A DNA stretch of 35,701 nucleotides from the NCBI GenBank assembly GCA_030390025.1, contig JASTWF010000333.1:496001-531701 (forward strand). The letters are read 5' to 3'. The translations under genes and the position numbers were made by a program. Shown piece after piece: positions 2,345-34,500 of the stretch; positions within the stretch are counted from its first letter, which is position 1; every line of letters begins with the position of its first letter. This DNA comes from Squalus acanthias (taxonomy: Eukaryota). Under the pieces are notes generated by a model. The model was not told where the DNA came from. It did not search any database and saw only the letters and a program-made list of their open reading frames with translations.

Positions 2345-2381
<37 letters not shown>

Positions 2382-4113: not shown

Positions 4114-4148
<35 letters not shown>

Positions 4149-6020: not shown

Positions 6021-6055
<35 letters not shown>

Positions 6056-9000: not shown

Positions 9001-12000
9001 ACACACACCGTGAATCATCCTCACACACACACACCCTGAATCATCCTCACACACTCACACCTTGAATCATCCTCACACACGCACACCCTGAATCATCCTC
9101 ACACACACATACACACCCTGAATCATCCTCACCCACACACACACACCCTGAATCATCCTCACACACACACACACACCCTGAATCATCCTCACACACACAC
9201 ACACACCCTGAATCATCCTCACACACACACACACCCTGAATCATCCTCACACACACACCCTGAATCACCCTCACACACACAAACCCTGAATCATCCTCAC
9301 ACACTCACACCTGAATCATCCTCACACACACACACACTGAATCATCCTCACACACACACACCCTGAATCATCCTCACACACACACACACCCTGAATCATC
9401 CTCACACACACACACACACACACACACACCCTGAATCATCCTCACACACACACACACCCTGAATCATCCTCACACACACACACACCTGAATCATCCTCAC
9501 ACACACACACACCCTGAATCATCCTCACACACACAGATACACCCTGAATCACCCTCACACACACACACACCCTGAATCAGCCTCACACACACACACACCC
9601 TGAATCATCCTCACACACACACACACACCCTGAATCACCCTCACACACACACACACCCTGAATCATCCTCACACACACACACACCCAGAATCATCCTCAC
9701 ACACACACACACCCTGAATCATCCTCACACACACACACACCCTGAATCATCCTCACACACACACACACCCTGAATCATCCTCACACAAAAACACACCCTG
9801 AATCATCCTCACACACACACACCCACTGAATCATCCTCACACACACACTCACCCTGTATCATCCTCACACACACAGACACACCCTGAATCATCCTCACAC
9901 ACACACACCCTGAATCATCCTCACACACACACACACACCCTGAATCATCCTCACACACACACACTCACCCTGAATCATCCACACACACACAGACACACCC
10001 TGAATCATCCTCACACACACACACACACTGAATCATCCTCACACACACACACACACACCCTGAATCATCCTCACACACACACACACCCTGAATCATCCTC
10101 ACACACACACACACCATGAATCATCCTCACACACACACACACACCCTGAATCATCCTCACACACACACACACACCATGAATCATCCTCACACACACACCC
10201 TGAATCATCCTCACACACACACAAACACACCCTGAATCATCCTCACACACACACACCCTGAATCATCCTCACACCCACACACACCCTGAATCATCCTCAC
10301 ACACACACACACTGAATCACCCTCACACACACACACACCCTGAATCACCCTCACACACACACACACCCTGAATCATCCTCACACACAACACACACCCTGA
10401 ATCTTCCTCACACACACACACACCCTGAATCATCCTCACACACAAACACACACCCTGAATCTTCCTCACACACACACACACCCTGAATCATCATCACACA
10501 CACACACACCCTGAATCATCCTCACACAAAAACACACCCTGAATCATCCTCACACACACACCCTGAATCATCCTCACACAAAAACACACCCTGAATCATC
10601 CTCACACACACACAGACACACCCTGAATCATCCTCACACACACAGACACACCCTGAATCATCCTCACACACACCCTGAATCATCCTCACACACACACCCT
10701 GAATCATCCTCACACACACACACCCTGAATCATCCTCACACACACACACACACCCTGAATCATCCTCACACACACACACACACTGAATCATCCTCACACA
10801 CACACACACACACCCTGAATCATCCTCACACACACACACACACACACCCTGAATCATCCTCACACACACACAAACACACCCTGAATCATCCCCACACACA
10901 CACACACCCTGAATCATCCCCACACACACACACCCTGAATCATCCCCACACACACACACCCTGAATCATCCCCACACACACACACACCCTGAATCATCCC
11001 CACACACACACACCCTGAATCATCCCACACACACACACACCCTGAATCATCCCCACACACACACACACCCTGAATCATCCCCACACACACACACACCCTG
11101 AATCATCCCCACACACACACACACCCTGAATCATCCCCACACACACACACACCCTGAATCATCCCCACACACACACACACCATGAATCATCCCACACACA
11201 CACACACACCATGAATCATCCCCACACACACACACACCCTGAATCATCCCACACACACACACACCCTGAATCATCCCACACACACACACACCATGAATCA
11301 TCCCCACACACACACACACCCTGAATCATCCCCACACACACACACCCTGAATCATCCCACACACACACACACACCTGAATCATCCTCACACACACAGACA
11401 CACCCTGAATCATCCTCACACACACACACACCCTGAATCATCCTCACACACACACACCCTGAATCATCCTCACACACACACACCATGAATCATCCTCACA
11501 CACACACTCACCCTGAATCATCCTCACACACACAGACACACCCTGAATCATCCTCACACACACACACACCCTGAATCAACCTCACACACACACACCCTGA
11601 ATCATCCTCACACACACACACACACCCTGATTCATCCTCACACACACACACTCACCCTGAATCATACACACACACACAGACACACCCTGAATCATCCTCA
11701 CACACACACACACACCCTGAATCATCCTCACACACACACACTCACCCTGAATCATACACACACACACAGACACACCCTGAATCATCCTCACACACACACA
11801 CACACTGAATCATCCTCACACACACACACACCCTGAATCATCCTCACACACACACACACCCTGAATCATCCTCACACACACACACACACACCCTGAATCA
11901 TCCTCACACACACACAACACACCCTGAATCATCCTCACACACACACACACCCTGAATCATCCTCACACACACACACACCCACTGAATCCTCCTCACACAC

Positions 12001-15000
12001 ACACCCTGAATCATCCTCACACACACACACACCATGAATCATCCTCACACACACACACCCTGAATCATCCTCACACACACACACACACCCTGAATCATCC
12101 TCACACACACACACCCTGAATCATCCACACACACACACACACCCTGAATCATCCTCACACACACACACACACACCCTGAATCACTCTCACACACACACAC
12201 CCTGAATCATCCTCACACACACATACACACCCTGAATCATCCTCACACACACACACACACACCGTGAATCATCCTCACACACACACACCCTGAATCATCC
12301 TCACACACTCACACCTTGAATCATCCTCACACACACACACCCTGAATCATCCTCACACACACATACACACCCTGAATCATCCTCACCCACACACACACAC
12401 CCTGAATCATCCTCACACACACACACACACCCTGAATCATCCTCACACACACACACACCCTGAATCATCCTCACACACACACACACCCTGAATCATCCTC
12501 ACACACACACCCTGAATCACCCTCACACACACAAACCCTGAATCATCCTCACACACTCACACCTTGAATCATCCTCACACACACACACACTGAATCATCC
12601 TCACACACACACACCCTGAATCATCCTCACACACACACACACACACACATACACACACCCTGAATCATCCTCACACACACACACACCCTGAATCATCCTC
12701 ACACACACACACACACACACACACACCCTGAATCATCCTCACACACACACACACACCCTGAATCATCCTCACACACACACACACCTGAATCATCCTCACA
12801 CACACACACACCCTGAATCATCCTCACACACACAGATACACCCTGAATCACCCTCACACACACACACACCCTGAATCAGCCTCACACACACACACACCCT
12901 GAATCATCCTCACACACACACACACACCCTGAATCACCCTCACACACACACACACCCTGAATCATCCTCACACACACACACACCCAGAATCATCCTCACA
13001 CACACACACACCCTGAATCATCCTCACACACACACACACCCTGAATCATCCTCACACACACACACACCCTGAATCATCCTCACACAAAAACACACCCTGA
13101 ATCATCCTCACACACACACACACCCTGAATCATCCTCACACACACACACCCACTGAATCATCCTCACACACACACTCACCCTGTATCATCCTCACACACA
13201 CAGACACACCCTGAATCATCCTCACACACACACACCCTGAATCATCCTCACACACACACACACACCCTGAATCATCCTCACACACACACACTCACCCTGA
13301 ATCATCCACACACACACAGACACACCCTGAATCATCCTCACACACACACACACACTGAATCATCCTCACACACACACACACACACCCTGAATCATCCTCA
13401 CACACACACACACCCTGAATCATCCTCACACACACACACACCATGAATCATCCTCACACACACACACACACCCTGAATCATCCTCACACACACACACACA
13501 CACCATGAATCATCCTCACACACACACACCCTGAATCATCCTCACACACACACAAACACACCCTGAATCATCCTCACACACACACACCCTGAATCATCCT
13601 CACACCCACACACACCCTGAATCATCCTCACACACACACACACTGAATCACCCTCACACACACACACACACCCTGAATCACCCTCACACACACACACACC
13701 CTGAATCATCCTCACACACAAACACACACCCTGAATCTTCCTCACACACACACACACCCTGAATCATCCTCACACACAAACACACACCCTGAATCTTCCT
13801 CACACACACACACACCCTGAATCATCATCACACACACACACACCCTGAATCATCCTCAAACAAAAACACACCCTGAATCATCCTCACACACACACACACC
13901 CACTGAATCCTCCTCACACACACACCCTGAATCATCCTCACACAAAAACACACCCTGAATCATCCTCACACACACACACACCCACTGAATCCTCCTCACA
14001 CACACACCCTGAATCATCCTCACACACACACACACCCTGAATCATCCTCACACACACACTCACCCTGAATCATCCTCACACACACAGACACACCCTGAAT
14101 CATCCTCACACACACACACCCTGAATCATCCTCACACACACACTCACCCTGAATCATCCTCACACACACAGACACACCCTGAATCATCCTCACACACAGA
14201 CACACCCTGAATCATCCTCACACACACACACCCACTGAATCCTCCTCACACACACACCCTGAATCATCCTCACACACACACACACCCTGAATCATCCTCA
14301 CACACACACTCACCCTGAATCATCCTCACACACACACACCCTGAATCATCCTCACACACACACACACCCTGAATCATCCTCACACACACACACACCATGA
14401 ATCATCCTCACACACACACTCACCCTGAATCATCCTCACACACACACACACACCCTGAATCATCCTCACACACACAGACACCCTGAATCATCCTCACACA
14501 CACAGACACACCCTGAATCATCCTCACACACACACACCCTGAATCATCCTCACACACACACACCCTGAATCATCCTCACACACACACACACACCCTGAAT
14601 CATCCTCACACACACACACCCTGAATCATCCTCACACACACACACACCCTGAATCATCCTCACACACACACACACACACCCTGAATCATCCTCACACACA
14701 CACAAACACACCCTGAATCATCCTCACACACACACACCCTGAATCATCCTCACACACACACACACCCTGAATCATCCTCACACACACACACACCATGAAT
14801 CATCCTCACACACACACCCTGAATCATCCTCACACACACACACACACACCCTGAATCACCCTCACACACACACACACACCCTGAATCACCCTCACACACA
14901 CACACACACCCTGAATCATCCTCACACACACACACACCCTGAATCATCCTCACACACACACACACCCTGAATCATCCTCACACACACACACCCTGAATCA

Positions 15001-15785
15001 TCCTCACACACACACACACACCCTGAATCATCCTCACACACACACACACACCCTGAATCATCCTCACACACACACACACACCCTGAATCATCCTCACACA
15101 CACACACACACCCTGAATCATCCTCACACACACACACACACGCTGAATCATCCTCACACACTCACACCTTGAATCACCCTCACACACACAAACCCTGAAT
15201 CATCCTCACACACTCACACCTTGATTCATCCTCACACACACACACACTGAATCATCCTCACACACACACACCCTGAATCATCCTCACACACACACACACA
15301 CACATACACACACCCTGAATCATCCTCACACACACACACACAACCTGAATCATCCTCACACACACCCTGAATCATCCTCACACACACACACCTGAATCAT
15401 CCTCACACAGACACACCCTGAATCATCCTCACACACACACACCCTGAATAATCCTCACACACACACCCTGAATCATCCTCACACACACACACACACCCTG
15501 AATCATCCTCACTCACACACACACAACCTGAATCATCCTCACACACACCCTGAATCATCCTCACACACACACCCTGAATCATCCTCACACACACACACAC
15601 ACCCTGAATCATCCTCACTCACACACACACAACCTGAATCATCCTCACACACACCTGAATCATCCTCACACAGACACACCCTGAATCATCCTCACACACA
15701 CACACCCTGAATCATCCTCACACACACACACAAACCCTGAATCATCCTCACACACACACACACACCCTGAATCGTCCTCACACAC
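1..15785. repeat. Tandem satellite, monomer CCTGAATCATCCT(CA)n, left array (roughly 550 units, continues beyond the window start)
   Basis: Continuous head-to-tail copies of a 13-bp core separated by variable CA tracts. Recurrent variants include CCATGA, TCACCCT, CAGACA, CTCACC and TCATCCCC. Unit count is estimated from length divided by ~29 bp. Confidence 0.99.
15781..15785. repeat. Left target-site duplication CACAC (partner at 25503-25507)
   Basis: CACAC precedes the LTR TG at 15786 and follows the LTR CA at 25502. Removing the provirus and one copy restores a normal TCCT(CA)7CCCTGA monomer. 3, 5 or 7 bp all fit; 4 and 6 bp do not. Confidence 0.75.
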
Positions 15786-16326
15786 TGTTGGGGAGAAAAT
15801 AAGATTCTCAGAGTCTGTGTAAAGTCCAAAAACACATAGTTTATTGACAAAGTACTTTGGGAGCAGGAGTCAAAAGGTCCCGTGACCTTTGTAACATCCT
15901 TCTCGTTTAACCTTTGTTCAGTACAGCTTATATTCAATATTTCTGGCTACATGCCATCATACATCGATTTTTGTCCAATTATATGGTATTACATTAATCA
16001 CCTGATTATATTTTGCCTTTATCTATATTTATTTGGCAACAATCATAAAAGCAGTTACATCTTGTTACGCCTTTTTGAGCATGGTCTAATCCCACAGTTT
16101 ACTACTGTATGTTATCTGTGATTGGCACCGTGCCTACGGTCTCTAGCTAACTTTGTAAAAGGCCTCTTTCAATACCGTTTATTAAACACCGAACCCTCCC
16201 TCAAAAATCTGTCTGGCAGCTGTAATTATATCTATTCCTTATCTCGTTTTGCAAAACCTTCACTGCACATGGTTTTATTGCAAATTGTGTAGAATTGAAT
16301 TTGACCATTTCAAATTAACTCTTTCA
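15786..16326 (-). repeat. 3' LTR (541 bp; minus strand TGAAAGAG...CCCCAACA)
   Basis: Direct repeat of 24065-24117 plus 25014-25502. Manual alignment gives 9 substitutions and one 1-bp indel. TG/CA termini, preceded by the PPT on the minus strand. Confidence 0.97.
15840..15845 (-). terminator. LTR polyadenylation signal AATAAA (3' LTR)
   Basis: Plus-strand TTTATT = minus-strand AATAAA, 54 nt from the LTR end, ~80 nt downstream of the TATA candidate and followed by TGTGTTTTT. Confidence 0.7.
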
Positions 16327-16327
16327 G

Positions 16328-16339
16328 TCCCTCCTGTTT
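16328..16339 (-). promoter_or_regulatory. Polypurine tract (plus-strand primer)
   Basis: Minus strand AAACAGGAGGGA-C directly abuts the TGAAAG start of the 3' LTR. Confidence 0.8.
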
Positions 16340-16499
16340 GGTCCCGGATCAAGCTTTTTATCCCGGGAACCAATTACCTTGCCTTTGTTACCATCCCCGG
16401 GGTTATAACCCTGTATTGATGGTTTAGGATCCCTGTCCTGAGGACCCGTCCTTGTTTCTCTCTGCATCGGATAGGATAGGTTCAGTGTTTAATTCTTTG

Positions 16500-18076
16500 T
16501 TACATAAAAGTGCCATCTCCTTCCTCCTCCCATAGCAGCATCATGGGGGCCGCTTTTGCTACCCCCACAATTGATTGTTTACACACGCATTTTAATAGTA
16601 ATATCATAGAATACATAATCAAGATTACGATGAAGAACAAAATCAATCCTTGTGCTATTGATGTCCCCAACGTCCCTAGCCACCTAGTTGCCCAGCTCCA
16701 GAGGGTAAGTGCTGGAGGTTGCTTTAATTTCTTTACCTCCTGTGTATATGCTCAGCTAGATTAGTTATATTTTCTGAGTTGTCTGGAATGTAGGTACAAC
16801 ATTCTGACCCTATTATTGCGCACGTTCCTCCTTCTTTGGCCAGAAGGTAATCGAGGGCCATCCTATTCTGAAGGGTTACTGTTCTTAAAGCGACCATCTC
16901 CGCATTAACATGTCTCAAAGCTTCGGCTGTGTCGTTGGCTACTTGCTCTAACACCGCTGCTATGTTAATAGATTCTCTTGCTAACTTCCCCGCTCCATAC
17001 CAGGGGAAGGCAATAGTGAAGAACCTTTCGGTTTCTGTGATTGCTCTTTTTGTGCGTATAGTTAGGGTTTTAGTAATTCGGGTATAAGGGATTACATATC
17101 CCATGTAACATGACCCTGTCCAGGACTGGGGCAACCATGGATATGCCTTGTGGCCGCATATGAAATAGGTACCGTTATAGGCAGTGAGGGATTGTACTGT
17201 TTCGGGGATCCATTTCTGTATGAAACTACTGCCACTGTTGGTGAGATTCTTGAACGAAAGTCTGGAACCGTCAGCGTCTTTATTTAAGTTCCAAGACTGT
17301 GAGCAACGACTCCATCCCACCTCTGTTCCCTTTTCTCCTTTCTTTAGGTTTCTGATTATGCATATTGCTCCCTGGGGTCTACCTACCCCTGAGGTATTTG
17401 TTAATATCAAAGACGGGGGTGGTTGAGTACGATTGTATTTGGGCTGATACCACCCCTGGAAGGTGGTCAGGTTGTAACCTGACGATTGCCATTCCTTTTT
17501 ATCCCCACTCACATCCACCTTATAGGTCCCTCCTTTAGTTTGAGCTCCCATCCTGAGACCATTCCTGGAAGAGTTTTGATTTAAATACCATGCTGCCATC
17601 TCTGACTCATTAAACGGTACTGGTCTTAAAGGGATCCCTTCCTGTGCATGTATAGGAACGTGTGCACATACCCAACATTTAGATACATTACTTCGTTTTG
17701 CATAAGTATAAGACATATACAGAAATGTGTTTACATTTAATTCTCGTTTCAACCGTCTGTTTGATTTCTCTTTTTGATATTTCTGGGCTGTAGGACACCG
17801 TAAGTCAACTAGGCAAGGAGTATCCCCGCATGGGACAGTCCAATTACTCCTGCCAGTTATATAAGTTCTTGAACCTTTGGTAAGCCAGGCTGTAGTGTCG
17901 GTTTCTCTCTCCAGCTTCCACTCCTCTCCGTCTCTTTCATCAGGGGCTGGGCAGTAAATCGTATCTTGGTCACACAATCGTATTGGATCTTGTCTCCGAA
18001 GAAGGCACTTGTATTTCAACGAGGCAATGTCCGTAGCGCATATTGCGATTACACTAATACACATAAGCAATTTCAT
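16500..18076 (-). pseudogene. env: Retroviral envelope, gamma-type. Open for 447 aa (16733-18076); one frameshift at ~16743 detaches the membrane anchor and tail (16500-16742)
   Basis: Signal peptide [24 protein letters not shown] (aa107-111), CWVC (aa134-137), furin site RTKR (aa341-344), fusion peptide, [19 protein letters not shown] and CAIIGSECC. The shifted frame reads [55 protein letters not shown]...GDGTFM* to TAA at 16500-16502. Confidence 0.95.
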
Positions 18077-18153
18077 CTTATTACTCTAAATTAACAACGT
18101 CCCAAAGGCTATATCGCCAACCTAACTATTTGTTGCTTGTGGATTCTGTTCTT

Positions 18154-18183
18154 CCTGTGAGGGTGTAATAATACAATTGTTAG
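18154..18183 (-). promoter_or_regulatory. Putative env splice acceptor with branch point
   Basis: Minus strand CTAAC-AATTGTATTATTACACCCTCACAG|GAAG (AG at 18156-18155). No ATG lies between it and the env ATG at 18076. Confidence 0.65.
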
Positions 18184-18461
18184 TTTGGTTCTCCGATCAC
18201 AACCATTTGGATTTCCTCCCTTACTATCGGTCGGAGTTGATGCTGGCGGGACTGTTCCCATACATACTTCAGGATCCAACCTAAGGTGTATCCCATTAGA
18301 AGAATGCAGATAGTCCAAGCCAGCGCGTGTACCAGCGCCCATTCCCATTCTTTATACTGTCTGGCATACTCTTCACTTTCTGCGAACGGTATTTGTTCTG
18401 GTGTAGCCATTTCTATGTTAGTGAAGGGTTGTAGGCTTTTAACTGTGTCCAGTGCTTCCAT
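18180..18461 (-). CDS. Putative accessory small single-pass membrane protein (93 aa, or 76 aa from ATG 18410)
   Basis: Intact ORF filling most of the pol-env gap. Both ATGs have strong Kozak context (acgATGG, gaaATGG), and the second lies 2 nt after the pol stop. One 24-aa hydrophobic segment WALVHALAWTICILLMGYTLGWIL, with an acidic N-side and K/R on the C-side. Confidence 0.6.
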   Translation of the reverse strand: MEALDTVKSLQPFTNIEMATPEQIPFAESEEYARQYKEWEWALVHALAWTICILLMGYTLGWILKYVWEQSRQHQLRPIVREEIQMVVIGEPN

Positions 18462-21400
18462 CGTCCCATGCCCTTTATATCAATGCAAGCACACGTATCT
18501 CCGCTGATAAGGATTTGATATGGCCCTGACCATTTAGGGGCAAATGTGATTCCTGGCTTCCCTGGCAAGCTTTTAACCATGACCTTAGTCCCTGCTGGGG
18601 GAACGTATGGAAGCGCAGTTAATTCCAAATCCTTGTCTTTCTCTTCCTGCCTTTCCCGAGTTTGTCTCTTTTTAACTGATTACTTAATTCCAAAACGTAC
18701 CGGCGGAGTCTATCTTTTAAAGGTCCTACGTCCTCCCCTCCGGTTATTATACCGTGTGGAAGCCGCATTGCCCTTCCTGTCATTAGCTCATATGGTGATA
18801 AGCCTGTGGTCCGGTTTGGAGTTGCTCTTAATTTCATTAACACGGTTGGTAGCATATCTACCCATCGTTGATGCTTTTCCCCTAATGCCTTAGCTAAAGC
18901 TGTTTTCAGGGTTCGATTCATTCGCTCCACCATCCCGGAACTCTGAGGATGGTAGGGGATATGAAACTTCTGTTTAATGCCCAACCATGCGCACATCTGT
19001 TTAACTACGGCTCCTGTAAAGTGAGTGCCCTGATCTGAGTCAATTTGAATTGGTACTCCCCATCTGGGAATTATTTCCTCTGCCATTATTCGTGCCACGG
19101 TGGTGGCAGTACAATTCCGGGTGGGGAACGCTTCGACCCACCTTGTGAATTGGTCTATAATCACCAGGCAGTACCTGCGTCCCCTTGAGGTAGGTAGTGG
19201 CCCAGTGAAGTCTATCTGTATGTTCTCCCATGGTCCCCTTGGTCTCGGTTGGTGGGCCAATCGTATCTTAACTGGCCGTCCCGGATTATGTTGGGCACAC
19301 GTTATGCATCTCTGGCAATGTTTCGCCACATCTCTTCCCAACCTTGCCACCACCATTCCTTGCCTATTAATTCAATCATTGATCCCCGCCCGGTATGGGC
19401 ATTTCCATGATGTAATTCTAAGAGTAACTGCCTAATACAGGTAGGGGCTATCACCTTTCCCTCTTTTCGCCATATGGCCTCTCTATCCGGTCTCCCTCCT
19501 GCATGGTACTATTCCTGCCTTTCTCCTTCTGAGGTATCTTTGTGTAGTTTACTAATATTTATTTCTTCCACCTGAACACTGGCTACACTTTCTTCGATTG
19601 TCTCGTGTTCGAGAGCCTGTTGTGCAGCCAGGTCGGCTGCATGATTACCCTCCTGTTCTATACTCTGTATCTTTTGGTGCGCTTTTATTTTCATTACTGC
19701 TGCCTGCGTTGGGGCTTTTGCCGCTTCTAGGAGGTCTTCTATACGTTGTTGGTGCTTAATATGATCCCCTCCTGTTGTTACGAATCCCCTCCTTCCCCAA
19801 GCTGTCATGTAATCATGTACTACCCCAAACGCATATCTACTATCTGTGTAGATGTTTACAGTTCTGTCTTTAGCTAATTCCAGGGCTTTCGTTAGGGCTA
19901 CTATCTCTGCCACTTGTGCCGAGAGCCCCCCGTCTAACCTTCCAGATAACTCAGTTTCCAACTGGCCATTAACAACTGGCCACCCGGTTCGTGGTGTTCC
20001 GTTAATATACTTTCGGGATCCATCCACATAAAGGGTAAGCTGAGCTTCCTCCAGTGGTTCATCCTGTATTGGGCTACTATCAACTTCGTCATCTACATCC
20101 GCACATTCATGGGGTTCTCCCATCCCTAGAATACCTTCTGCTGGGTTCTCCCCGGTGTCCCGAACGATTTTTACTGATTCATCTTTGGGTATCAATACAG
20201 CTTCCCATCGTGCCCTACGCATGTTTGACACTGACCTCAATTTGTTGTTATTTAGCATGTCTACCAGCGTATGTTTGGTGTGCAGGGTGATATCCCCGGT
20301 CATTACCGTGGGTTCGCTCACCCTCACAGCCCATGCTGCACAATCTAATGCTGCTACACACCGTGACAGCCCTGCGGCCACTGGTGACTGCTGGGTGGAA
20401 TAGTATGCTACCGGTCGTTTTCTGTCTCCATGCTGCTGGGTAACTACTGCAGCATAGAATCCTCCCTCATTTTCACAGTGTATATGGAATGGCTTTTTCA
20501 TATCGGGTAGCCCGAGTCCCGGGGCTGTTATCAATGCCTGTTTTAATTTTCCATATGCTTCCTGTTGTTCATGTCCCCATTCAATGAGGGCGTTACCGGG
20601 GTTTCCCCCTTTTACGAGCCTCTGAATCGGTTCCGCTATCGCTGCGAAATTAGGTATAAAGTTCCTACTATAATTAAAAAGACCCAGGACTTTTCTGACT
20701 CCTCTGACTGAGACCGGTCGAGGCATTTCTTGTATTGCCTTTCGACGGTCACTAGGCATTGTCCTGACCCCCTGGGATATTTGTTGTCCCAAGTAAGTAA
20801 CAATACTCTGTCCAATCTGAGCCTTCCTGGGGTTTGCTTTAAATCCACCCTTTTCTAGTGCTTGTAGGATTACACCCAGGGCTGCTGCATGCCCCTTTTC
20901 ATCCTCTGATGCTATTAACAGATCATCTACATATTGTAATACAGTGCTACGGTACGGGGAAAGATCTATAGGTTCTAATAATGAACTCATTACCCGATGA
21001 AATATTGCTGGACTATTGTGGAATCCCTGTGGCAATCGGGTCCACGTGTACTGTTTATTTCCCACGGTGAAGGCGAACTTACTCTGGGACTCCGGGTCCA
21101 AGGGCAAGGACCAGAATCCGTTGGCTATGTCCAATACTGTGAATATTTTGTGTTCCATACTCAAACCGTTTAAAATAGTGGCCGGGCTGGCCACTATTGG
21201 GTGTAATTTTGGAGTTACCTTATTTAGGGCTGTGTAGTCAATAGTCAATCGATATGACCCATCTGGCTTCTTTACTGGCCACACAGGGGAATTGGTTGTA
21301 CTTTCTGTTGCCCTAATTATTCCTCTTTCCTCCAAATCCCGTACTATCTTTGACACAGCTTCCTGTGCTTCTGGCTTAATGGGATATTGTCTGTGTGATT

Positions 21401-21941
21401 TATGCTCCGGACCGGGAACTATGATAGGGTCCACCTCTGCCAACCCAGTATCCTGCTTTGAGACTGCCCACACTGTCTTGATGTTCTCACATATAGCCCC
21501 ATATTCCTGACTCCAGTCTCGTTTTAACGTTTTTGCACTCCCCACCTTAGCTAGGTGACCAAAAGGTTTTGTTAATCCCGTCTTGTTTCCGTCCGTTTGG
21601 GACCAAATTATTTTATTCAGTACCGGACTTACCAGGATATTATATTCTCTTAACAAATCTATTCCTAAAATAGTTCCTTCATTATTGGGGCATACATAAA
21701 ATTGCGCGGGGAGTAGTCGTCCCGCTATCTCTAATACCTACACTTCACTTTTATATGCAGAAATTCGTTCCCCTCCTAATCCTGATATATATATTTTGTG
21801 TTTGGTGACGGGAAGAGGCAGGTCCGTTATTGACACTGCTGCTCCCGTGTCTACCAGCATATCGCACTGCCGGCCCCCTATCAGCGCTGGCACATAGACA
21901 CGGTCGTCATGCTCCTCTCTTCCCGCGGGGGCCGCTGCTAG
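18413..21941 (-). pseudogene. pol: pro-pol polyprotein (protease, RT, tether, RNase H, integrase), in frame with gag, disrupted
   Basis: DTG at 21843-21851, ILGID, YVDD at 20922-20933, RNase H LYVDGS/AEIVA/YTDS/NHAAD, integrase HHGNAH..CITC, QIDFTG, DSDQG, VERMN and WSGPY. Lesions: TAG 21738-21740, TAG 19509-19511, frameshifts at ~19346 and ~18670. Confidence 0.96.
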
Positions 21942-21944
21942 TCA
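21938..21944 (-). promoter_or_regulatory. gag stop codon in UGA-CUAG readthrough context
   Basis: Minus strand AAC CGC TGA CTA GCA. The same frame continues LAAAPAGREEHDDRVYVPALIGGRQCDMLVDTGA into the protease. Confidence 0.8.
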
Positions 21945-23355
21945 GCGGTTATTTCCCTGGTCCTTGACAAGTTGCAAAAACCTCTGATATTCTTCGGGGC
22001 TCAGTCTAGGACCCTGATCTCCCGACCCCATATTTTCCCGCTTTGGACCCCAGCAGTCGTTGGTGCGGTGTCCCTGCTTGCCGCAATTACCGCAAGTCGG
22101 GATACTTTGTTTGGGACTCCTACACTCCTTAGCCATATGCCCCATCTTCCCACAATTGAAACACGCCCCTCTCTTTGGCTGGGGGTTTCTTTGCTGAACT
22201 CCGACTGCTCCCACCTTTTCTTGTTTAATAACCTTTCCTCGCTCTCCTTCTGTTCCATCTATCTGACAAGCCCATTTAACTACCGCATCGTAAGTGTCAG
22301 CCGTAACTACCCCCATTTTTAGTATCTTTTGGTGTTCTGAGGACAGACCATCTTTGTACATTTTTACAAATACAGGGTCGTCCCTTTGGGGGTTTTCCTG
22401 TCCCGAGGATTCCTGATATTGGTACCAGAGCCGTTCCCCATACGAATTTGAATTTTCCCCCTTCTTCTGTTGTATCTGCATTATTAAACCCCAATTTGGT
22501 GACGGGGCCCCCATCGTTTCCTGGACCCCTCTCTTGAACTCACTCCTCATTGTGTCCCGATTGGCTTGGGTTTCACCTGCTGTTGGACACCAAGTGCCAT
22601 TTCGGAAATTATCTGGTAATGCATTCCACTTGTCCCTTGGGCACTTGGCACGAACTATCTGGTGGACATCCTTTTCATGCATATTATGTATATCGTACAA
22701 TTCTTCCAATTTTTCCCAAAATTCTACATTTCATTTTCTTGGCTGTAATGTTCCTAAATCTTGATTTATCATTTGTTTTTCGGCGGGGGTAAATGCATGA
22801 TACCTAACTCTTGCGGCACGAGGACTACCTCCCACTGTCCGTATTACGGGTGCTGCCTTTTTAGTGATTATCTTTTCATCTTCGTCATCCCCTTCGTTAA
22901 AATTATCTACCGGGGGTGCCGAAGCTGATACAGCATATGAGGGGGTATGTCATCTTCCTCACCATATCTTCCAACCCCCGCGCCAGCACTCAAGCCTGTT
23001 GTTCATTCCAGCGTTCACTTTTATCCATTCTATATCCATCCTTTAACTTCTGTCCTGTTCTTAAGTATTCATTCTCCTGTTGTAGCTCTAAGATTTTCTC
23101 GTTGTGTCTCGTCAAACCCATATGTAGATCTCATACCTTCCTGGTCACTACGACCAGTTGGTGTACTAAGATCACTCCTGCTTTCTTAATCCTTTTCTGT
23201 TTCTGTCTCATCCACCACTCTCTCTGAGTGACAGGTGACTGGAACGGATCCCATCCGTCCTTAATCATCTTTTCCACCATACCCTTCCGGTCATCTGCAT
23301 AGAACCTAGTAAGGGACCCTTCTGGCCCCCAGTCTAGTCCTTTCCCCGATGCCAT
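21942..23355 (-). pseudogene. gag: Gag polyprotein with two CCHC zinc knuckles, disrupted
   Basis: MASGKGLDW start, coiled-coil-like EKILELQQENEYLR, ASAPP, MHR-like IQQKKGENSNSYGERL, and knuckles CFNCGKMGHMAKEC (22122-22163) and CGNCGKQGHRTNDC (22053-22094). In-frame TGA at 23131-23133, 22990-22992 and 22731-22733; frameshift at the G5 run 22941-22945. The start codon is inferred. Confidence 0.92.
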
Positions 23356-23567
23356 CTATAGTCCGACGTCAGTCCTCCACTGCGTTCCTCTAATCGGGCT
23401 GGTCTAGGAAACCTAGTCTGACTTCAGTCTTACCCTACTTCTGCTGTGTCTCGCTAGGCGACAGAGTTTCCTTCGAATAAAAAGTTCGTGACACTTTGGT
23501 TACTCAATCACACCTCTGACTTTGCCTCCTGGAGTGCTTTGGAGCCTCTACGCCTACTTTATGGTCC

Positions 23568-23815
23568 TGGCCTTCACGTGGGGCATTTGCCCTCTTAATA
23601 ACCGGCCTGAGGCTAGGCGTATGAGACAGGCACTCCCCTTGTCCGCTGGGCTTAATCAGGTCTTACCCTTCTCGACATATATCGCTACAACAGTTCTGCC
23701 TTAATTACTTTATATCATTCAAATGTCCTCAAAACTGTGTACACTTACTTTCATTCAATCCACACACTCAGTTAATCTTTGGCCTTCGCGTGGGGCATTT
23801 GCCCTCTTAACAACC
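23568..23815 (-). repeat. 36-bp direct repeat pair in the leader (23568-23603, 23780-23815), candidate packaging hairpins
   Basis: TGGCCTTC(A/G)CGTGGGGCATTTGCCCTCTTAA(T/C)AACC occurs twice with 2 mismatches. Each copy contains a GGGC-AAAT-GCCC hairpin on the minus strand. Confidence 0.8.
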
Positions 23816-23888
23816 AGCTCAGGCTGAGTGTGCCTTATTCAACATCCACAGTCACCATTTACTCACTCTCTCTCTCTCTCTCACACCT

Positions 23889-23897
23889 ACTTACTGC
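23889..23897 (-). promoter_or_regulatory. Putative major splice donor
   Basis: Minus strand GCA|GTAAGT, ~150 nt downstream of the PBS and upstream of gag, followed by a (GA)n tract at 23866-23882. Confidence 0.6.
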
Positions 23898-24043
23898 GTG
23901 TTTTTCACTTCTCACAGCTCTTTCTCATTCGGAGTGCTACGATGCTGTTACTCCGCGTTCCCAGATGACACAATTTTTGGACGGTCAAAATTTTGACTGC
24001 TCGTCCGAGTTCACTGGTACAAACGGTCTGTCAACCTCGTAGC

Positions 24044-24061
24044 ACCCTGCTCGCAGCGCCA
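24044..24061 (-). promoter_or_regulatory. Primer binding site, tRNA-Ser (UGA/CGA type)
   Basis: Minus strand TGGCGCTGCGAGCAGGGT, 3 nt after the LTR end. Its complement ACCCTGCTCGCAGCGCCA resembles vertebrate tRNA-Ser(UGA/CGA) 3' ends as recalled (…CCTGCTCGCTGCGCCA / …CCTGCTCACAGCGCCA). Confidence 0.85.
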
Positions 24062-24117
24062 AATTGTTGGGGAGAAAATAAGATTCTCAGAGTCTGTGTA
24101 AAGTCCAAAAACACATA

Positions 24118-25010
24118 GGGGTAAAAATTAGGTCGCGCCCCATTTGGGGCGCAAATATCGTCTGGACGCAAATATTAGCGCCTGGCGCTAATTATCGGCA
24201 CTGACTGGAAACTTCACTTTTACCGCCCCGGGAGGTGAGTGGAGCGCTAAATCAGGCGCTGCACACCTGTCTTAAGGCGCAAAGGCCGAGGAGTGAGGCG
24301 CTAACTCAGAGCGCTGGCGAAGCTCATGTAATGTCAGTCAGCAATGGAACACACACACAATGGCACGGGCCAGTTCTTAAAGGGGATGGTTAATCTTGCT
24401 TTCCATCCACATCCTGTTCATTGCAGCCTTGAATCTCGGCCTGGAGAGACTTGCACATCAAATGTGCTGGAAAGAACAATGGAGAGTACCAGGCAAAGAG
24501 CTCAGAGTGCAGCTCCCACAGTCTCTGCTAAATCGATACAAGGAATGGCAAATCAAAATGAACCTGCAAAGTGCTGCTCAGTACCCAAAACTCCTTCACA
24601 CAACGTTGAATCTCTCCAGAAGTCTCTCCCTCTCTCTCTCAGAATGCGTAGTTCAAAAATGCCACCAACAATAAAAGACAGGAAGAGGCCCCCTTTAAAT
24701 AGCGCCCCCCCCAGCCCCACAGCGATTGATAGCGTTCCAGTCTTCTGGTCGTTGGATGCGCCAGGCGGTAAGGCAGGGGGCGCCACTCAATTTCCGCTCC
24801 GGGGCGCCACAAGGGCGTTGCACCATGGAATGACGTCACAATCTGCGCGCGCAGGTGGTCGCAGCGGTAAGTTTTAGCGCCGCCACACAATCTCTAGTTA
24901 AGTTCCCGAGCGGCGCAAACATCGCTGCGCCCGGGCGTTAGCGGTTTTGCGCCCCATTAGCGCCCTCTTAAGGCGCTAACGGGAGGCGCAACCAACTGAA
25001 TTTTTACCCC
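24118..25010. mobile_element. Non-autonomous TIR DNA transposon (MITE), PIF/Harbinger-like, 893 bp
   Basis: Perfect 12-bp TIR GGGGTAAAAATT...AATTTTTACCCC. 3-bp TSD ATA (24115-24117, 25011-25013), with the empty site visible in the other LTR (ACACATAGTTT). GC-rich palindromic subterminal motifs and no transposase. The superfamily is inferred from the 3-bp TSD and GGG termini. Confidence 0.92.
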
Positions 25011-25102
25011 ATAGTTTATTGACAAAGTACTTTGGGAGCAGGAGCCAAAAGGTCCCGTGACCTTTGTAACATCCTTCTCGTTTAACCTTTGAGCAGTACA
25101 GC

Positions 25103-25108
25103 TTATAT
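25103..25108 (-). promoter_or_regulatory. Candidate LTR TATA box (AATATAAG); equivalent at 15928-15933
   Basis: Minus strand ATATAA ~80 nt upstream of AATAAA, as expected for a U3/R layout. CCAAT further upstream at 25296-25300. Confidence 0.5.
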
Positions 25109-25502
25109 TCAATATTTCTGGCTACATGCCATCATACATCGATTTTTGTCCAATTATATGGTATTACATTAATCACCTGATTATAGTTTGCCTTTACCTA
25201 TATTTATTTGGCAAAAATCATAAAAGCAGTTACATCTTGTTCCACCTTTTTGAGCATGGTCTAATCCCACAGTTTACTACTGTATGTTATCTGTGATTGG
25301 CACCGTGCCTACGGTCTCTAGCTAACTTTGTAAAAGGCCTCTTTCAATACCGTTTATTAAACACCGAACCCTCCCTCAAAAATCTGTCTGGCAGCTGTAA
25401 TTATATCTATTCCTTATCTCGTTTTGGAAAACCTTCACTGCACATGGTTTTATTGCAAATTGTGTAGAAATTGAATTTGACCATTTCAAATTAACTCTTT
25501 CA

Positions 25503-28500
25503 CACACACACACACCCTGAATCATCCTCACACACACACACACCCTGAATCATCTTCACACACACACACACACCCTGAATCATCCTTACACACACACACA
25601 CACCCTGAATCATCCTCACACACACACTGAATCATCCTCACACTCACACACACCCTGAATCATCCTCACAAACACACACCCTGAATCATCCCCCCACACA
25701 CACACACATCCTGAATCATCCTTACACACACACACACCCTGAATCAACCTCACACACACACACACCCTGAATCATCCTCACACACACACACACCCTGAAT
25801 CATCCTCACACACACACACCCTGAATCAACCTCACACACACACACACCCTGAATCACCCTCACACACACACACACCCTGAATCATCCTCACACACACACA
25901 CCCTGAATCATCCTCACACACACACACCCTGAATCATCCTCACACAGACACACCCTGAATCATCCTCACACACACACATACCCTGAATCACCCTCACACA
26001 CACACACACACACCCTGAATCATCCTCACACACACACACACACCCTGAATCATCCTCACACACACACACCCTGAATCATCCTCACACACACACACACCCT
26101 GAACCATCCTCACACACACACATACCCAGAATCATCCTCACACACACACACACCCTGAATCATCCTCACACACACACACACCCTGAATCATCCTCACACA
26201 CACACACACCCTGAATCCACCTCATCCTCACACACACCCCCTGAATCATCCTCACACACACACACACCCTTAAACATCCTCACACACACACACCCTGAAT
26301 CACCCTCAAACACACACACCCTGAATCATCCTCACACACACACCCTGAATCATCCTCACACACACACACACACACACACCCTGAATCATCCTCACACACA
26401 CACACCCTGAATCATCCTCACACACACACACACCTTGAATCACCCTCACACACACACACCCTGAATCATCCTCACACACACACACACACCCTGAATCATC
26501 CTCACACACACACACACCCTGAATCATCCTCACACACATACACACACCCTGAATCATCCTCACACACACACACACACACCCTGAATCATCCTCACACACA
26601 CACACCCTGAATCATCCTCACACACACACACACCCTGAATCATCCTCACACACACACACACCCTGAATCATACTCACACACACACACCCTGAATCATCCT
26701 CACACACACACACCCTGAATCATCCTCACACACACACACCCTGAATCATCCTCACACACACACACCCTGAAACATCCTCACACACACACACCCTGAATCA
26801 TCCTCACACACACACACACACCCTGAAACATCCTCACACACACACACCCTGAATCATCCACACACACACACACACACACCCTGAAACATCCTCACACACA
26901 CACCCTGAATCATCCTCACACACACACACACCCTGAAACATCCTCACACACACACCCTGAATCATCCTCACACACACACACACACCCTGAATCATCCTCA
27001 CACACACACCCTGAATCATCCTCACACACTCACACACCCTGAATCATCCTCACACACTCACACACCCTGAATCATCCTCACACACACACCCTGAATCATC
27101 CTCACATACACACACACACCCTGAAACATCCTCACACACACACACCCTGAATCATCCTCACACACACACCCTGAATCATCCTCACACACACACACACCCT
27201 GAATAATCCTCACACACACACCCTGAATCATCCTCACACACACATACCCTGAATGATCCTCACACACACAAACACACCCTGAATCATCCTCACACACACA
27301 CACACACACCCTGAATCATCCTCACACACACACACACACCCTGAATCATCCTCACACACACACACACCATGAATCATCCTCACACACACACACACACCCT
27401 GAATCATCCTCGCACACACACACACCATGAATCATCCTCACACACACACACACCCCCTGAATCATCCTCACACACACACACACACCATGAATCATCCTCA
27501 CACACACACACACACCCTGAATCATCCTCACACACACACACACACCATGAATCATCCTCACACACACACACACACACTGAATCATCCTCACACACACACA
27601 CACACCCTGAATCATCCTCACACACACACACACACCCTGAATCATCCTCACACACACACACACCATGAATCATCCTCACACACACACACACACACTGAAT
27701 CATCCTCACACACACACACACACCCTGAATCATCCTCACACACACACTGAATCATCCTCACACACACACACACACACCCTGAATCATCCTCATACACACA
27801 CTCTGAATCATCCTCACACACACACACACACACACCCTGAATCATCCTCACACACACACACACCCTGAATCATCCTCACACACACACACACACCCTGAAT
27901 CATCCTCACACACACACCCTGAATCATCCTCACACACACACACACACCCTGAATCATCCTCACACACACACACACCCTGAATCATCCTCACACACACACA
28001 CACACACCCAGATTCATCCTCACCCACACACACACACCCTGAATCATCCTCACACACACACCCTGAATCATCCTCACACACACACCCTGAATCATCCTCA
28101 CACACACACACACACCCTGAATCATCCTCACACACACACCCTGAATCATCCTCACACACACACACACACCCTGAATCATCCTCACACACACATACACACC
28201 CTGAATCATCCTCACACACACACCCTGAATCACCCTCACACACACACACACACACCCTGAATCATCCTGACACACACACACCCTGAATCATCCTGACACA
28301 CACACACCCTGAATCATCCTGATACACACACACCCTGAATCATCCTCACACACACACACCCTGAATCATCCTCACACACACACACACACCCTGAATCATC
28401 CTCACACACACACACACACACCCTGAATCATCCTCACACACACACACACACCCTGAATCATCCTCACACACACACACACACACCCTGAATCATCCTCACA

Positions 28501-31500
28501 CACACACACACACCATGAATCATCCTCACACACACACACACACTCTGAATCATCCTCACACACACACACACCCTGAATCATCCTCACACACACACACACC
28601 ATGAATCATCCTCACACATACACACACACACTGAATCATCCTCACACACACACACACCCTGAATCATCCTCACACACACACACACCCTGAATCATCCTCA
28701 CACACACACACACCCTGAATCATCCTCACACACACCCTGAATCACCCTCACACACACACACACCCACCCACTGAATCATCCTCACACACACACACCCTGA
28801 ATCATACTCACACACACACACTGAATCATCCTCACACACACACACACTCTGAATCATCCTCACACACACACACACACCCTGAATCATCCTCACACACACA
28901 CACACCCTGAATCATCCTCACACACACACACACACCCAGATTCATCCTCACCCACACACACACACCCTGAATCATCCTCACACACACACCCTGAATCAGC
29001 CTCACACACACACACACACCCTGAATCATCCTCACACACACACCCTGAATCACCCTCACACACACACACACCCTGAATCATCCTGACACACACACACCCT
29101 GAATCATCCTGACACACACACACCCTGAATCATCCTGACACACACACACCCTGAATCATCCTCACACACACACACCGTGAATCATCCTCACACACACACA
29201 CACACCCTGAATCATCCTCACACACAAACACACACCCTGAATCATAATGACACACACACACCCTGAATCATCATCACACACACACACCCTGAATCATCCT
29301 CACAAACACACACACACACTGAATCATCCTCACACACACACACACCCTGAATCATCTTCACACACACACACCCTGAATCATCCTGACACACACACACCCT
29401 GAATCATCCTCACACACACACACCCTGAATCATCCTCACACACACACACACACCCTGAATCATCCTCACACACACACACACACACTGAATCATCCTCACA
29501 CACACACACACACCCTGAATCATCCTCACACACACACACACCCTGAATCATCCTCACACACACACACCCTGAATCATCCTCACACACACACACCCTGAAT
29601 CATCCTCACACACACACACACCCTGAATCATCCTCACACACACACACTCACCCTGAATCATCCTCACACACACACACACCCTGAATCATCCTCACACACA
29701 CACACACACCCCGAATCATCCTCACACACACACACACACTGAATCATCCTCACACACACACCGTGAATCATCCTCACACACACACACACACCCTGAACCA
29801 TCCTCACACACACACACACCATGAATCATCCTCACACACACACACACACCCTGAATAATCCTCACACACACACACACCCTGAATCATCCTCACACACACA
29901 CCCTGAATCATCCTCACACACACACACAACCTGAATCATCCTCACACACACACCCTGAATCATCCTCACACACACACACACACCCTGAATCATCCTCACA
30001 CACACACCCTGAATCATCCTCACACACACACACACACCATGAATCATCCTCACACACACACACACACACCCTGAATCATCCTCACACACACACACACACC
30101 ATGAATCATCCTCACACACACACAAACACTCTGAATCATCCTCACACACACACACACCCTGAATCATCCTCACACACACACACACCATGAATCATCCTCA
30201 CACACACACACACACCCTGAATCATCCTCACACACACACACACCCTGAATCATCCTCACACACACACACACCCTGAATCATCCTCACACACACACACCCT
30301 GAATCATCCTCACACACACACACACACCATGAATCATCCTCACACACACACACACACACCCTGAATCATCCTCACACACACACCCTGAATCACCCTCACA
30401 CACACACACACACACACCCCCTGAATCATCCTCACACACACACACACACTCTGAATCATCCTCACACACACACACACCCTGAATCATCCTCACACACACC
30501 CTGAATCACCCTCACACACACACACACCCTGAATCATCCTCACACACTCACACACACCCTGAATCATCCTTACACACACACACACACACCCTGAATCATC
30601 CTCACACACACACTGAATCATCCTCACACACACACACACCCTGAATCATCCTCACACACACACACACCCTGAATCATCCTCACACACACGCACACCCTGA
30701 TTCATCCTCACACACACACACACCCTGATTCAGCCTCACACACACACACACCCTGAATCATCCTCACACACACACACACCCTGAATCATCCTCACACACA
30801 CGCACACCCTGATTCATCCTCACACACACACACACCCTGATTCAGCCTCACACACACACACACCCTGAATCATCCTCACACACACACACACCCTGAATCA
30901 TCCTCACACACACACACACCCTGAATCATCCTCACACACACACACACCCTGATTCAGCCTCACACACACACACACCCTGAATCATCCTCACACACACACA
31001 CACCCTGAATCATCCTCACACACACACACACCCTGATTCATCCTCACACACACACACCCTGATTCAGCCTCACACACACACACACACACTGAATCATCCT
31101 CACACACACACACCCTGAATCGTCCTCAAACACACACACACACACTGATTCATCCTGACACACACACACACCCTGAATCATCCTCACACACACACACACA
31201 CACTGAATCACCCTCACACACACACACCCTGAATAATCCTCACACACACACCCTGAATCATCCTCACACACACATACCCTGAATGATCCTCACACACACA
31301 AACACACCCTGAATCATCCTCACACACACACACACACACCCTGAATCATCCTCACACACACACACACACCCTGAATCATCCTCACACACACACACACCAT
31401 GAATCATCCTCACACACACACACACACCCTGAATCATCCTCACACACACACACACCATGAATCATCCTCACACACACACACACCCCCTGAATCATCCTCA

Positions 31501-34500
31501 CACACACACACACACCATGAATCATCCTCACACACACACACACACACTGAATCATCCTCACACACACACACACACCCTGAATCATCCTCACACACACACA
31601 CACACACTGAATCATCCTCACACACACACACACACCCTGAATCATCCTCACACACACACACACACCCTGAATCATCCTCACACACACACACACCATGAAT
31701 CATCCTCACACACACACACACACACTGAATCATCCTCACACACACACACACACCCTGAATCATCCTCACACACACACTGAATCATCCTCACACACACACA
31801 CACACACCCTGAATCATCCTCATACACACACTCTGAATCATCCTCACACACACACACACACACACCCTGAATTATCCTCACACACACACACACCCTGAAT
31901 CATCCTCACACACACACACACACCCTGAATCATCCTCACACACACACCCTGAATCATCCTCACACACACACACACACCCTGAATCATCCTCACACACACA
32001 CACACCCTGAATCATCCTCACACACACACACACACACCCAGATTCATCCTCACCCACACACACACACCCTGAATCATCCTCACACACACACCCTGAATCA
32101 TCCTCACACACACACCCTGAATCATCCTCACACACACACACACACCCTGAATCATCCTCACACACACACCCTGAATCATCCTCACACACACACACACACC
32201 CTGAATCATCCTCACACACACACCCTGAATCATCCTCACACACACATACACACCCTGAATCATCCTCACACACACACCCTGAATCACCCTCACACACACA
32301 CACACACACCCTGAATCATCCTGACACACACACACCCTGAATCATCCTGACACACACACACCCTGAATCATCCTGATACACACACACCCTGAATCATCCT
32401 CACACACACACACCCTGAATCATCCTCACACACACACACACACCCTGAATCATCCTCACACACAAACACACACACCCTGAATCATCCTCACACACACACA
32501 CACACCCTGAATCATCCTCACACACACACACACACACCCTGAATCATCCTCACACACACACACACACCATGAATCATCCTCACACACACACACACTCTGA
32601 ATCATCCTCACACACACACACACCCTGAATCATCCTCACACACACACACACCATGAATCATCCTCACACATACACACACACACTGAATCATCCTCACACA
32701 CACACACACCCTGAATCATCCTCACACACACACACACCCTGAATCATCCTCACACACACACACACCCTGAATCATCCTCACACACACCCTGAATCACCCT
32801 CACACACACACACACCCACCCACTGAATCATCCTCACACACACACACCCTGAATCATCCTCACACACACACACTGAATCATCCTCACACACACACACACT
32901 CTGAATCATCCTCACACACACACACACACCCTGAATCATCCTCACACACACACACACCCTGAATCATCCTCACACACACACACACACCCAGATTCATCCT
33001 CACCCACACACACACACCCTGAATCATCCTCACACACACACCCTGAATCAGCCTCACACACACACACACACCCTGAATCATCCTCACACACACACCCTGA
33101 ATCACCCTCACACACACACACACCCTGAATCATCCTGACACACACACACCCTGAATCATCCTGACACACACACACCCTGAATCATCCTGACACACACACA
33201 CCCTGAATCATCCTCACACACACACACCGTGAATCATCCTCACACACACACACACACACCCTGAATCATCTTCACACACAAACACACACCCTGAATCATA
33301 ATGACACACACACACCCTGAATCATCCTCACACACACACACCCTGAATCATCCTCACAAACACACACACATACTGAATCATCCTCACACACACACACACC
33401 CTGAATCATCTTCACACACACACACCCTGAATCATCCTGACACACACACACCCTGAATCATCCTCACACACACACACCCTGAATCATCCTCACACACACA
33501 CACACACCCTGAATCATCCTCACACACACACACACACCCTGAATCATCCTCACACACACACACACACCCTGAATCATCCTCACACACACACACACCCTGA
33601 ATCATCCTCACACACACACACCCTGAATCATCCTCACACACACACACCCTGAATCATCCTCACACACACACACACCCTGAATCATCCTCACACACACACA
33701 CTCACCCTGAATCATCCTCACACACACACACACCCTGAATCATCCTCACACACACACACACACCCCGAATCATCCTCACACACACACACACACTGAATCA
33801 TCCTCACACACACACCGTGAATCATCCTCACACACACACACACACCCTTAAACATCCTCACACACACACACCCTGAATCACCCTCAAACACACACACCCT
33901 GAATCATCCTCACACACACACCCTGAATCATCCTCACACACACACACACACACACACCATGAATCATCCTCACACACACACACCCTGAATCATCCTCACA
34001 CACACACACACCTTGAATCACCCTCACACACACACACCCTGAATCATCCTCACACACACACACACACCCTGAATCATCCTCACACACACACACACACCCT
34101 GAATCATCCTCACACACATACACACACCCTGAATCATCCTCACACACACACACACACACCCTGAATCATCCTCACACACACACACCCTGAATCATCCTCA
34201 CACACACACACACCCTGAATCATCCTCACACACACACACACCCTGAATCATACTCACACACACACACCCTGAATCATCCTCACACACACACACCCTGAAT
34301 CATCCTCACACACACACACCCTGAATCATCCTCACACACACACACCCTGAAACATCCTCACACACACACACCCTGAATCATCCTCACACACACACACACA
34401 CCCTGAAACATCCTCACACACACACACCCTGAATCATCCACACACACACACACACACACCCTGAAACATCCTCACACACACACCCTGAATCATCCTCACA

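Follow-up and report, generated by a model that had tools for sequence, protein, structure and literature searches.

Anatomy of a defective provirus

The sequence analysed here, referred to as the window, is a stretch of 35,701 nt from Squalus acanthias (assembly GCA_030390025.1, contig JASTWF010000333.1, positions 496,001 to 531,701 of the forward strand). It consists of a satellite array interrupted by one provirus on the minus strand (25502-15786), which measures 8,821 nt after subtraction of an 893-nt insertion. Long terminal repeats (LTRs), domains and motifs are in place, identifying the element as an endogenous retrovirus (ERV) of the Retroviridae. All features of the provirus given below lie on the minus strand unless stated otherwise. 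The 3' LTR (15786..16327) is 542 nt long with TG...CA ends, and the 5' LTR is split into a first part (25011..25502), 97% identical to 15835-16327, and a last part (24065..24117), which holds the U5 end with its ...CA and matches the repeat at 97%. The primer-binding site (PBS; 24044..24061) lies 3 nt past the LTR. Compared by eye with human tRNA-Ser(UGA) (sequence from PMC11096365), it is complementary to the 3'-terminal 18 nt of the tRNA at 17 of 18 positions (24061-24044). A leader of about 690 nt follows (23356..24043), in which a pattern scan found five splice-donor-like sites of putative function, and a polypurine tract read from the sequence (16328..16346) adjoins the 3' LTR.

The three coding regions are gag (21942..23355), pro-pol (18413..21941) and a gamma-type env (16500..18076), which runs from a signal peptide through a membrane anchor. 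Gag starts with MASGK at 23355, thus Met-Ala, and contains a short coiled coil, a capsid and two CCHC knuckles (22163-22122 and 22094-22053). It matches the Heterodontus protein P0006 at 48% and 41% identity, whereas its N-terminus gave no usable Atlas match. Pro-Pol comprises protease (LVDTGA, 21857), reverse transcriptase (RT; three motifs at 21293, 21134 and 21047, and YVDD at 20933), tether, RNase H and an integrase with a GPY-type end. The Pfam scan of the provirus returned RVT_1 (E = 8e-34), RNase_H (2e-22), rve (2e-20), zf-CCHC (2e-9) and TLV_coat (8e-12), and no dUTPase match. A first-pass annotation of this DNA had named the RT, Gag, PBS and Env motifs, among them the Ser PBS, the two knuckles, the Met-Ala start and the Env motifs CWVC, ISD (immunosuppressive domain) and CX6CC; all were recovered in their places on the minus strand. 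The coiled-coil-like Gag N-terminus that it had described is present but modest: the best 28-residue heptad score, a crude ad hoc measure, is 0.62, compared with 0.77 for the Gag of a reference record of snakehead retrovirus (SnRV) size and 0.28 for a gammaretrovirus Gag. The ancestral virus would have been primed on tRNA-Ser, with its Gag targeted without myristate.

Nine breaks were counted in the coding regions, in agreement with the nine lesions annotated before. Four are in gag (in-frame stops at 23133 and 22733, and two breaks between about 23000 and 22940), four in pro-pol (in-frame stops at 21740 and 19511, frame changes near 19345 and 18660) and one in env (a single frame change near 16740). 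Therefore, this copy of the provirus is dead. The stretch was found in 20 sequencing runs, none of them listed as RNA; nine contained at least half of the sampled words, and five organism labels among the 20 runs reached at least 0.44 of the words. Four of the 20 runs were compared with the window, the comparison resting on 40 of the 419 letter differences and 12 of the 44 insertions or deletions. The contigs listed were mostly 97-99% alike. Among the differences listed, the pro stop and the env break differ from the window in all four runs, and the first gag stop and the break near 19345 in three, the fourth run having no cover there. These four lesions therefore look private to the present copy. 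In addition, an intact Env of 525 residues with 98% identity is present in a public record.

The LTR pair (16327-15786 against 25502-24065) differs by nine substitutions in 546 aligned columns, with three gap columns in addition, a Kimura two-parameter distance of 0.017. At the rates of Han 2015 (PMC4422223), 2.2e-9 and 2.2e-10 per site per year, this corresponds to an insertion age of about 4 to 38 million years. The differences comprise six transversions against three transitions, which is odd for neutral decay; some of them may stem from the assembly, in which case the insertion is younger.

We consider it likely that the element is a dead germ-line provirus of a fish and shark lineage outside retroviral classes I and II, which was primed by tRNA-Ser, expressed its Pol by readthrough of a UGA stop with a downstream helix and carried a gamma-type Env made from spliced RNA.

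The gag-pol junction and the pol-env spacer

The terminator of gag is a TGA at 21944-21942 followed by CTAG, and pro stays in frame. The in-frame gag-pol annotated earlier thus holds as to the frame, but this TGA stands between the two genes. The reference sequences are viral contigs provisionally labelled by length and motif; L003 and L004 are two fish relatives, and L001/L156 we take to be the SnRV record, as its 10,688 nt and UAGGGC junction are those published. The distance from the stop to the protease Asp is 31 codons in the window, 31 in L003, 32 in L004 and 32 in L156. Since the distance recurs in L003, L004 and the SnRV record, the TGA is taken as the native gag terminator. If the TGA were instead one more lesion in a gag-pol that was once a single open frame, it would join three other in-frame TGA stops in gag that are lesions. 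This is highly improbable, as in every relative for which DNA is available a stop occurs equally far ahead of the protease site. In the whale shark element Rh_ty_ERV4 (Xu et al. 2018, PMC6001957), a TGA likewise closes gag at the corresponding position, with pro in the same frame. As a weaker point, the 27 longer Pol matches with more than 47% identity include no Gag-Pol fusion from this lineage.

Past the stop, an 8-bp G+C helix is predicted (stop and helix 21871..21944; arms 21934-21927 and 21878-21871). A best-helix search of the window, L003, L004 and the SnRV record found in each a G+C helix of 7-9 bp that starts at +11/+12 and closes between +74 and +77, with pair probabilities of 0.5-1.0. 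The helix opens 8-9 nt past the stop in all four members of this grade that were tested, and the five class I controls lack a helix at this register. The arms covary: in L003 and L004, U-A stands in place of one C-G pair, with both sides changed, and in L156 the same exchange affects a different pair. The changes in the arms alter amino acids (Pro/Ser/Leu; Gly/Glu) with pairing kept. By eye, Rh_ty_ERV4 has matching arms with a G-U pair. In L156 the same post-gag-stop helix lies within 2191-2270.

A 2026 review (PMC13517186) defines type II readthrough by UGACGG or UGACUA and gives UAGGGA, UAGGGC, UGAAGA, UGACGA and UGAAGU as retroviral contexts; its section 4.1.2 calls the cis-acting readthrough elements of fish retroviruses unclear and gives SnRV by its hexanucleotide only. 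The gag stop of the window stands in the type II context UGACUA (TGA-CTA-G), whereas that of Rh_ty_ERV4 reads TGA-CGG by eye, thus UGACGG. We propose that Gag-Pro-Pol would be made by UGA readthrough in the CUAG context, and that the helix, opening 8 nt past the stop and closing about 50 nt on, is a candidate stimulator of it. By analogy with alphavirus and gammaretrovirus signals, the UGA may be decoded by a near-cognate tRNA favoured by CUAG, with termination slowed before the stem. Type II readthrough in alphaviruses and coltiviruses, and vertebrate genes with UGACUAG, likewise combine UGA-CUA(G) with a downstream extended stem-loop (PMC13517186), a likeness of predicted working and not of kinship. 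No prior report of the UGA-CUAG context and post-stop helix of this lineage was found in a search that left out most subscription papers, Firth et al. 2011 and the original SnRV paper and that covered the supplement of Xu et al. in part. With this context, retroviruses would join the type II class, and a helix with compensatory changes common to SnRV makes the unclear signal of fish retroviruses simply testable.

Several results weigh against the proposed signal and the lineage assignment. Codon shuffles reached the observed helix in 10, 51, 5 and 58 of 500 trials (window, L003, L004 and SnRV record), so that two of the four junctions are weak alone, and control L089 has a helix at another register that was reached in 46 of 500. 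The folding energy of the junction is ordinary (z = -0.53, 0.16, -0.97 and -1.86 in four windows), and two of the four folding windows give other folds. The set is small, with four independent DNA junctions and one by eye, and the differences listed from the sequencing runs (40 of 419) do not establish that other copies retain the gag stop. Furthermore, the tree position varies between the RT polytomy and the class I sister position described below.

The spacer between pol and env contains an open reading frame (ORF) of 76 codons (18180..18410) that begins 2 nt past the pol stop and encodes one hydrophobic helix (19-mer, mean 1.85), a candidate accessory membrane protein. Its end falls inside the branch-point-like sequence of an env acceptor-like site (18155..18190), both read directly and of putative use. 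Lentiviral Vpu would be its positional analogue, and the chances are about even that the ORF encodes a small accessory membrane protein placed like Vpu. No prior report of the ORF in this lineage was found, most subscription papers lying outside the search. A simple retrovirus would account for the spacer and the junction in another way, with the ORF arising by chance, the helix following from the conservation of protease codons, and basal readthrough needing no more than UGA-CUA. The ORF has no homologue beyond one close copy (one match among two candidates) and no usable Atlas match, and it diverges more between copies (93 identical residues among the 99 of the longer frame from stop to stop) than Env does (98%). 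Moreover, the folding z-scores are weak and some UGACUA motifs act without structure (PMC13517186). We nevertheless regard a simple retrovirus as doubtful: an ATG ORF of equal length occurred in just 37 of 5000 shuffled spacers, the frame starts directly behind pol, encodes a membrane-type helix and is open in the second copy with mostly conservative differences, and the arms of the junction helix change amino acids while keeping their pairing.

Phylogenetic position and published relatives

The nearest RT is P0001 (73%), which clusters with a Mustelus asterias protein. Among named proteins, the closest are from sharks (Mustelus, Heterodontus, Scyliorhinus), followed by teleosts; a cartilaginous fish is the most likely host. 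Identity of the RT is 41% to the SnRV-size record and 27-33% to class II. The RT tree was built on 241 columns and 65 rows. It unites the window with P0001, P0303 and a Heterodontus protein at 99/93, and this clade falls outside that of class I/II (100/99), where it shares a polytomy with foamy viruses and the SnRV group. Approximately unbiased (AU) tests on 45 of these rows rejected both an epsilon (p = 3.5e-5) and a gamma grouping (p = 6.6e-40); groupings with SnRV alone (0.078), with the SnRV group (0.135) and with foamy viruses (0.25) were not rejected. The check set out in the first-pass annotation, an RT phylogeny, thus gave no firm grouping within gamma or epsilon.

The RT+tether trees (38 rows, 426 columns; class II, ERV-L, ERV-S and lokiretrovirus rows not included) made class I together with an Astyanax pair the sister group of an 8-row clade that contains the window, with support of 95/98 (mixture model) and 98/97 (LG+G4). 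The mixture-model tree recovered the same four members as a clade at 100/100. The AU tests on this alignment rejected foamy viruses (0.027) and did not reject the Huo clade (0.18), the SnRV group (0.10) or SnRV alone (0.13). In no RT or RT+tether tree was a clade of window and SnRV recovered, the first FastTree serving as a lead only. Of the class III assignment made earlier, the position outside classes I and II therefore stands; for the SnRV/ERV-S-like part, the trees recover no grouping with SnRV and the AU tests reject none. The Astyanax sequences P0013 and P0019 are a separate fish lineage, the closest sister of class I in all trees (support 95-100).

The sister position raises the alternative that the lineage is a stem lineage adjoining class I and not phylogenetic class III. 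Huo would then be a grade, and the readthrough helix and non-myristoylated Gag that the lineage has in common with SnRV would be ancestral. The RNase H and integrase scores, which are higher with class I records than with the SnRV-size record, fit this as well. It is a serious possibility that we place somewhat below even, as the AU tests do not reject the three rival groupings, RT alone is unresolved, the RT+tether tree holds no class II, ERV-L or ERV-S rows, and Xu et al. (PMC6001957) report strong support for clade Huo. The place of the lineage in the trees, like the small ORF, is relevant to the origin of class I retroviruses and of accessory genes.

Other memberships were examined and rejected. 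Class I is rejected by the RT position outside the gamma and epsilon crown with the AU values above, and class II by the RT tree and the low RT identity. Foamy viruses are rejected by the two knuckles and the RT+tether AU test, though not by RT alone. The ERV-L/ERV-S branch is rejected on traits, the trees holding no rows of it: the window has YVDD, two knuckles and no dUTPase match, whereas ERV-L and XtERV-S have YIDD, no CCHC knuckle and a dUTPase after integrase (PMC8278194, Table 2). A lokiretrovirus, also not represented in the trees, is rejected because the Env is a TLV_coat protein with ISD and CX6CC, while lokiretrovirus Env resembles paramyxovirus F (PMC7947760). A Pol-ORF scan of viral contigs gave no direct match, and an Rfam scan of the window none at all.

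The provirus belongs to the group of Rh_ty_ERV4 (whale shark) and An_ro_ERV3 (American eel), both filed by Xu et al. 2018 (PMC6001957) in clade Huo. By eye, Rh_ty_ERV4, the nearest published relative, shares 80 of 111 RT residues (about 72%), the same protease stretch and two knuckles with the window. An_ro_ERV3 shares the LTR end, the 3-nt spacer and the first 15 nt of the PBS, and its Gag has the Met-Ala start, the GWDP..WW and VRAKCP motifs and a coiled-coil-like stretch, but one knuckle is visible in 400 Gag residues against two in the window. The elephant shark CmiERV lineage I clusters with SnRV (Han 2015, PMC4422223). Similar to the window, it has by eye a tRNA-Ser PBS (18/18 to Ser-AGA), a Met-Ala Gag with coiled-coil repeats, repeats in the leader and a plainly homologous Env; it differs in a Pol of another subgroup and one knuckle seen and, by eye, in having no room for a pol-env ORF and no extra N-terminal Env domain. 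In the window, the leader holds a 39-nt direct repeat (23568-23606 and 23780-23818, 92% alike). XtERV-S of Xenopus (Yedavalli et al. 2021, PMC8278194) shares the Ser PBS, the lack of a myristoylation signal, the in-frame TGA and the transmembrane (TM) motifs CxxC, ISD and CX6CC of a class I TM joined to class III gag-pol, yet it is of the ERV-L branch. The SnRV record resembles the window in the Met-Ala start, coiled coil, junction and helix register, with weak capsid similarity (24%), but differs in RT, in one knuckle, a UAG stop and a 3' accessory ORF, and in an Env lacking CX6CC and ISD and giving no BLAST match to that of the window.

The mix of class III-type Pol, Ser PBS and gamma-type Env is therefore already published in XtERV-S and CmiERV lineage I. 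A preprint on anamniote Envs (10.1101/2021.11.23.469661) records the combination of SnRV-related Pol of class III with a gamma-type Env, as well as gamma-type Envs in six cartilaginous fishes. The view of the element as an unusual mosaic from a poorly described lineage is thus largely refuted. The provirus is a further member of a mined but thinly described group, and its main value is the gag-pol junction. The candidate junction signal and, less surely, the small ORF and the extra Env domain described next mark it as a variant, all of them predictions from the sequence.

Envelope, insertion and flanking satellite

The gamma-type Env would be translated from a spliced RNA. It carries CxxC in the surface subunit (CWVC, 17677), a furin site (RTKR, 17056), ISD (16873), CX6CC (16822) and a membrane anchor. 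A second furin-type site, RLKR at 17755 ahead of CWVC, would cut off a cysteine-rich N-terminal domain of about 90 residues, a putative extra domain delimited by furin cleavage. A basic site with a long part ahead of CxxC occurs in 14 of 93 Env matches that have the CxxC motif, and the extra domain aligns in two of these 14. No prior report of such a domain was found, most subscription papers being outside the search. The Env model has a mean predicted local distance difference test score (pLDDT) of 69, and about 50 in the N-terminal domain. Against PDB it gave no match at E<=0.001. Among viral models, F-env of chelonid alphaherpesvirus 5 matches its structure best (E 1.5e-17, 24% identity), and ERV Envs match as well; this link between F-env and ERV Env is already in print.

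In the TM tree, the Env groups with gamma-type Envs of sharks and fishes, apart from mammalian gamma, and the nearest named Envs are those of Heterodontus, Scyliorhinus and Aldrovandia. L003 carries a gamma-type Env (5210-6946), whereas L004, despite a similar Pol, carries an Env without similarity to it (6628-8889), pointing to possible env exchange within this fish and shark grade. A broader scheme, which we put forward tentatively as a rather unlikely one, is that SnRV and a wide fish and shark grade share an extended G+C stem 8-9 nt past the gag stop, in UAG-G or alphavirus-type UGA-C contexts, as stimulator, and that the shark branch would stand beside the class I root as a complex virus with a Vpu-like protein and an Env shedding its N-terminal domain.

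The provirus presumably inserted into the satellite and was later hit by a DNA transposon. The 893-nt insertion in the 5' LTR (24118..25010, no strand assigned) is non-coding and DNA-transposon-like, and it postdates the provirus because the 3' LTR lacks it. Its ends can be read as 12-nt terminal inverted repeats with a 3-nt target duplication, or alternatively as 11 nt with 5 nt. Harbinger elements typically make 3-bp duplications (PMC9179366), and the insertion may be Harbinger-like. It is G+C-rich, the word GGCGC recurs in it many times, and an internal inverted repeat of 22 nt lies close to one of its ends.

The flanks (1..15785 and 25503..35701, no strand assigned) consist of the same satellite with a 26-28-bp unit, in 564 copies on the left and 364 on the right. 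The length of the provirus target duplication is ambiguous because the flanks are CA repeats. The satellite unit combines a constant core, CCCTGAATCATCCT, with a variable CA tract, within which the provirus is inserted, and its strand skew is extreme (GC skew about -0.84).

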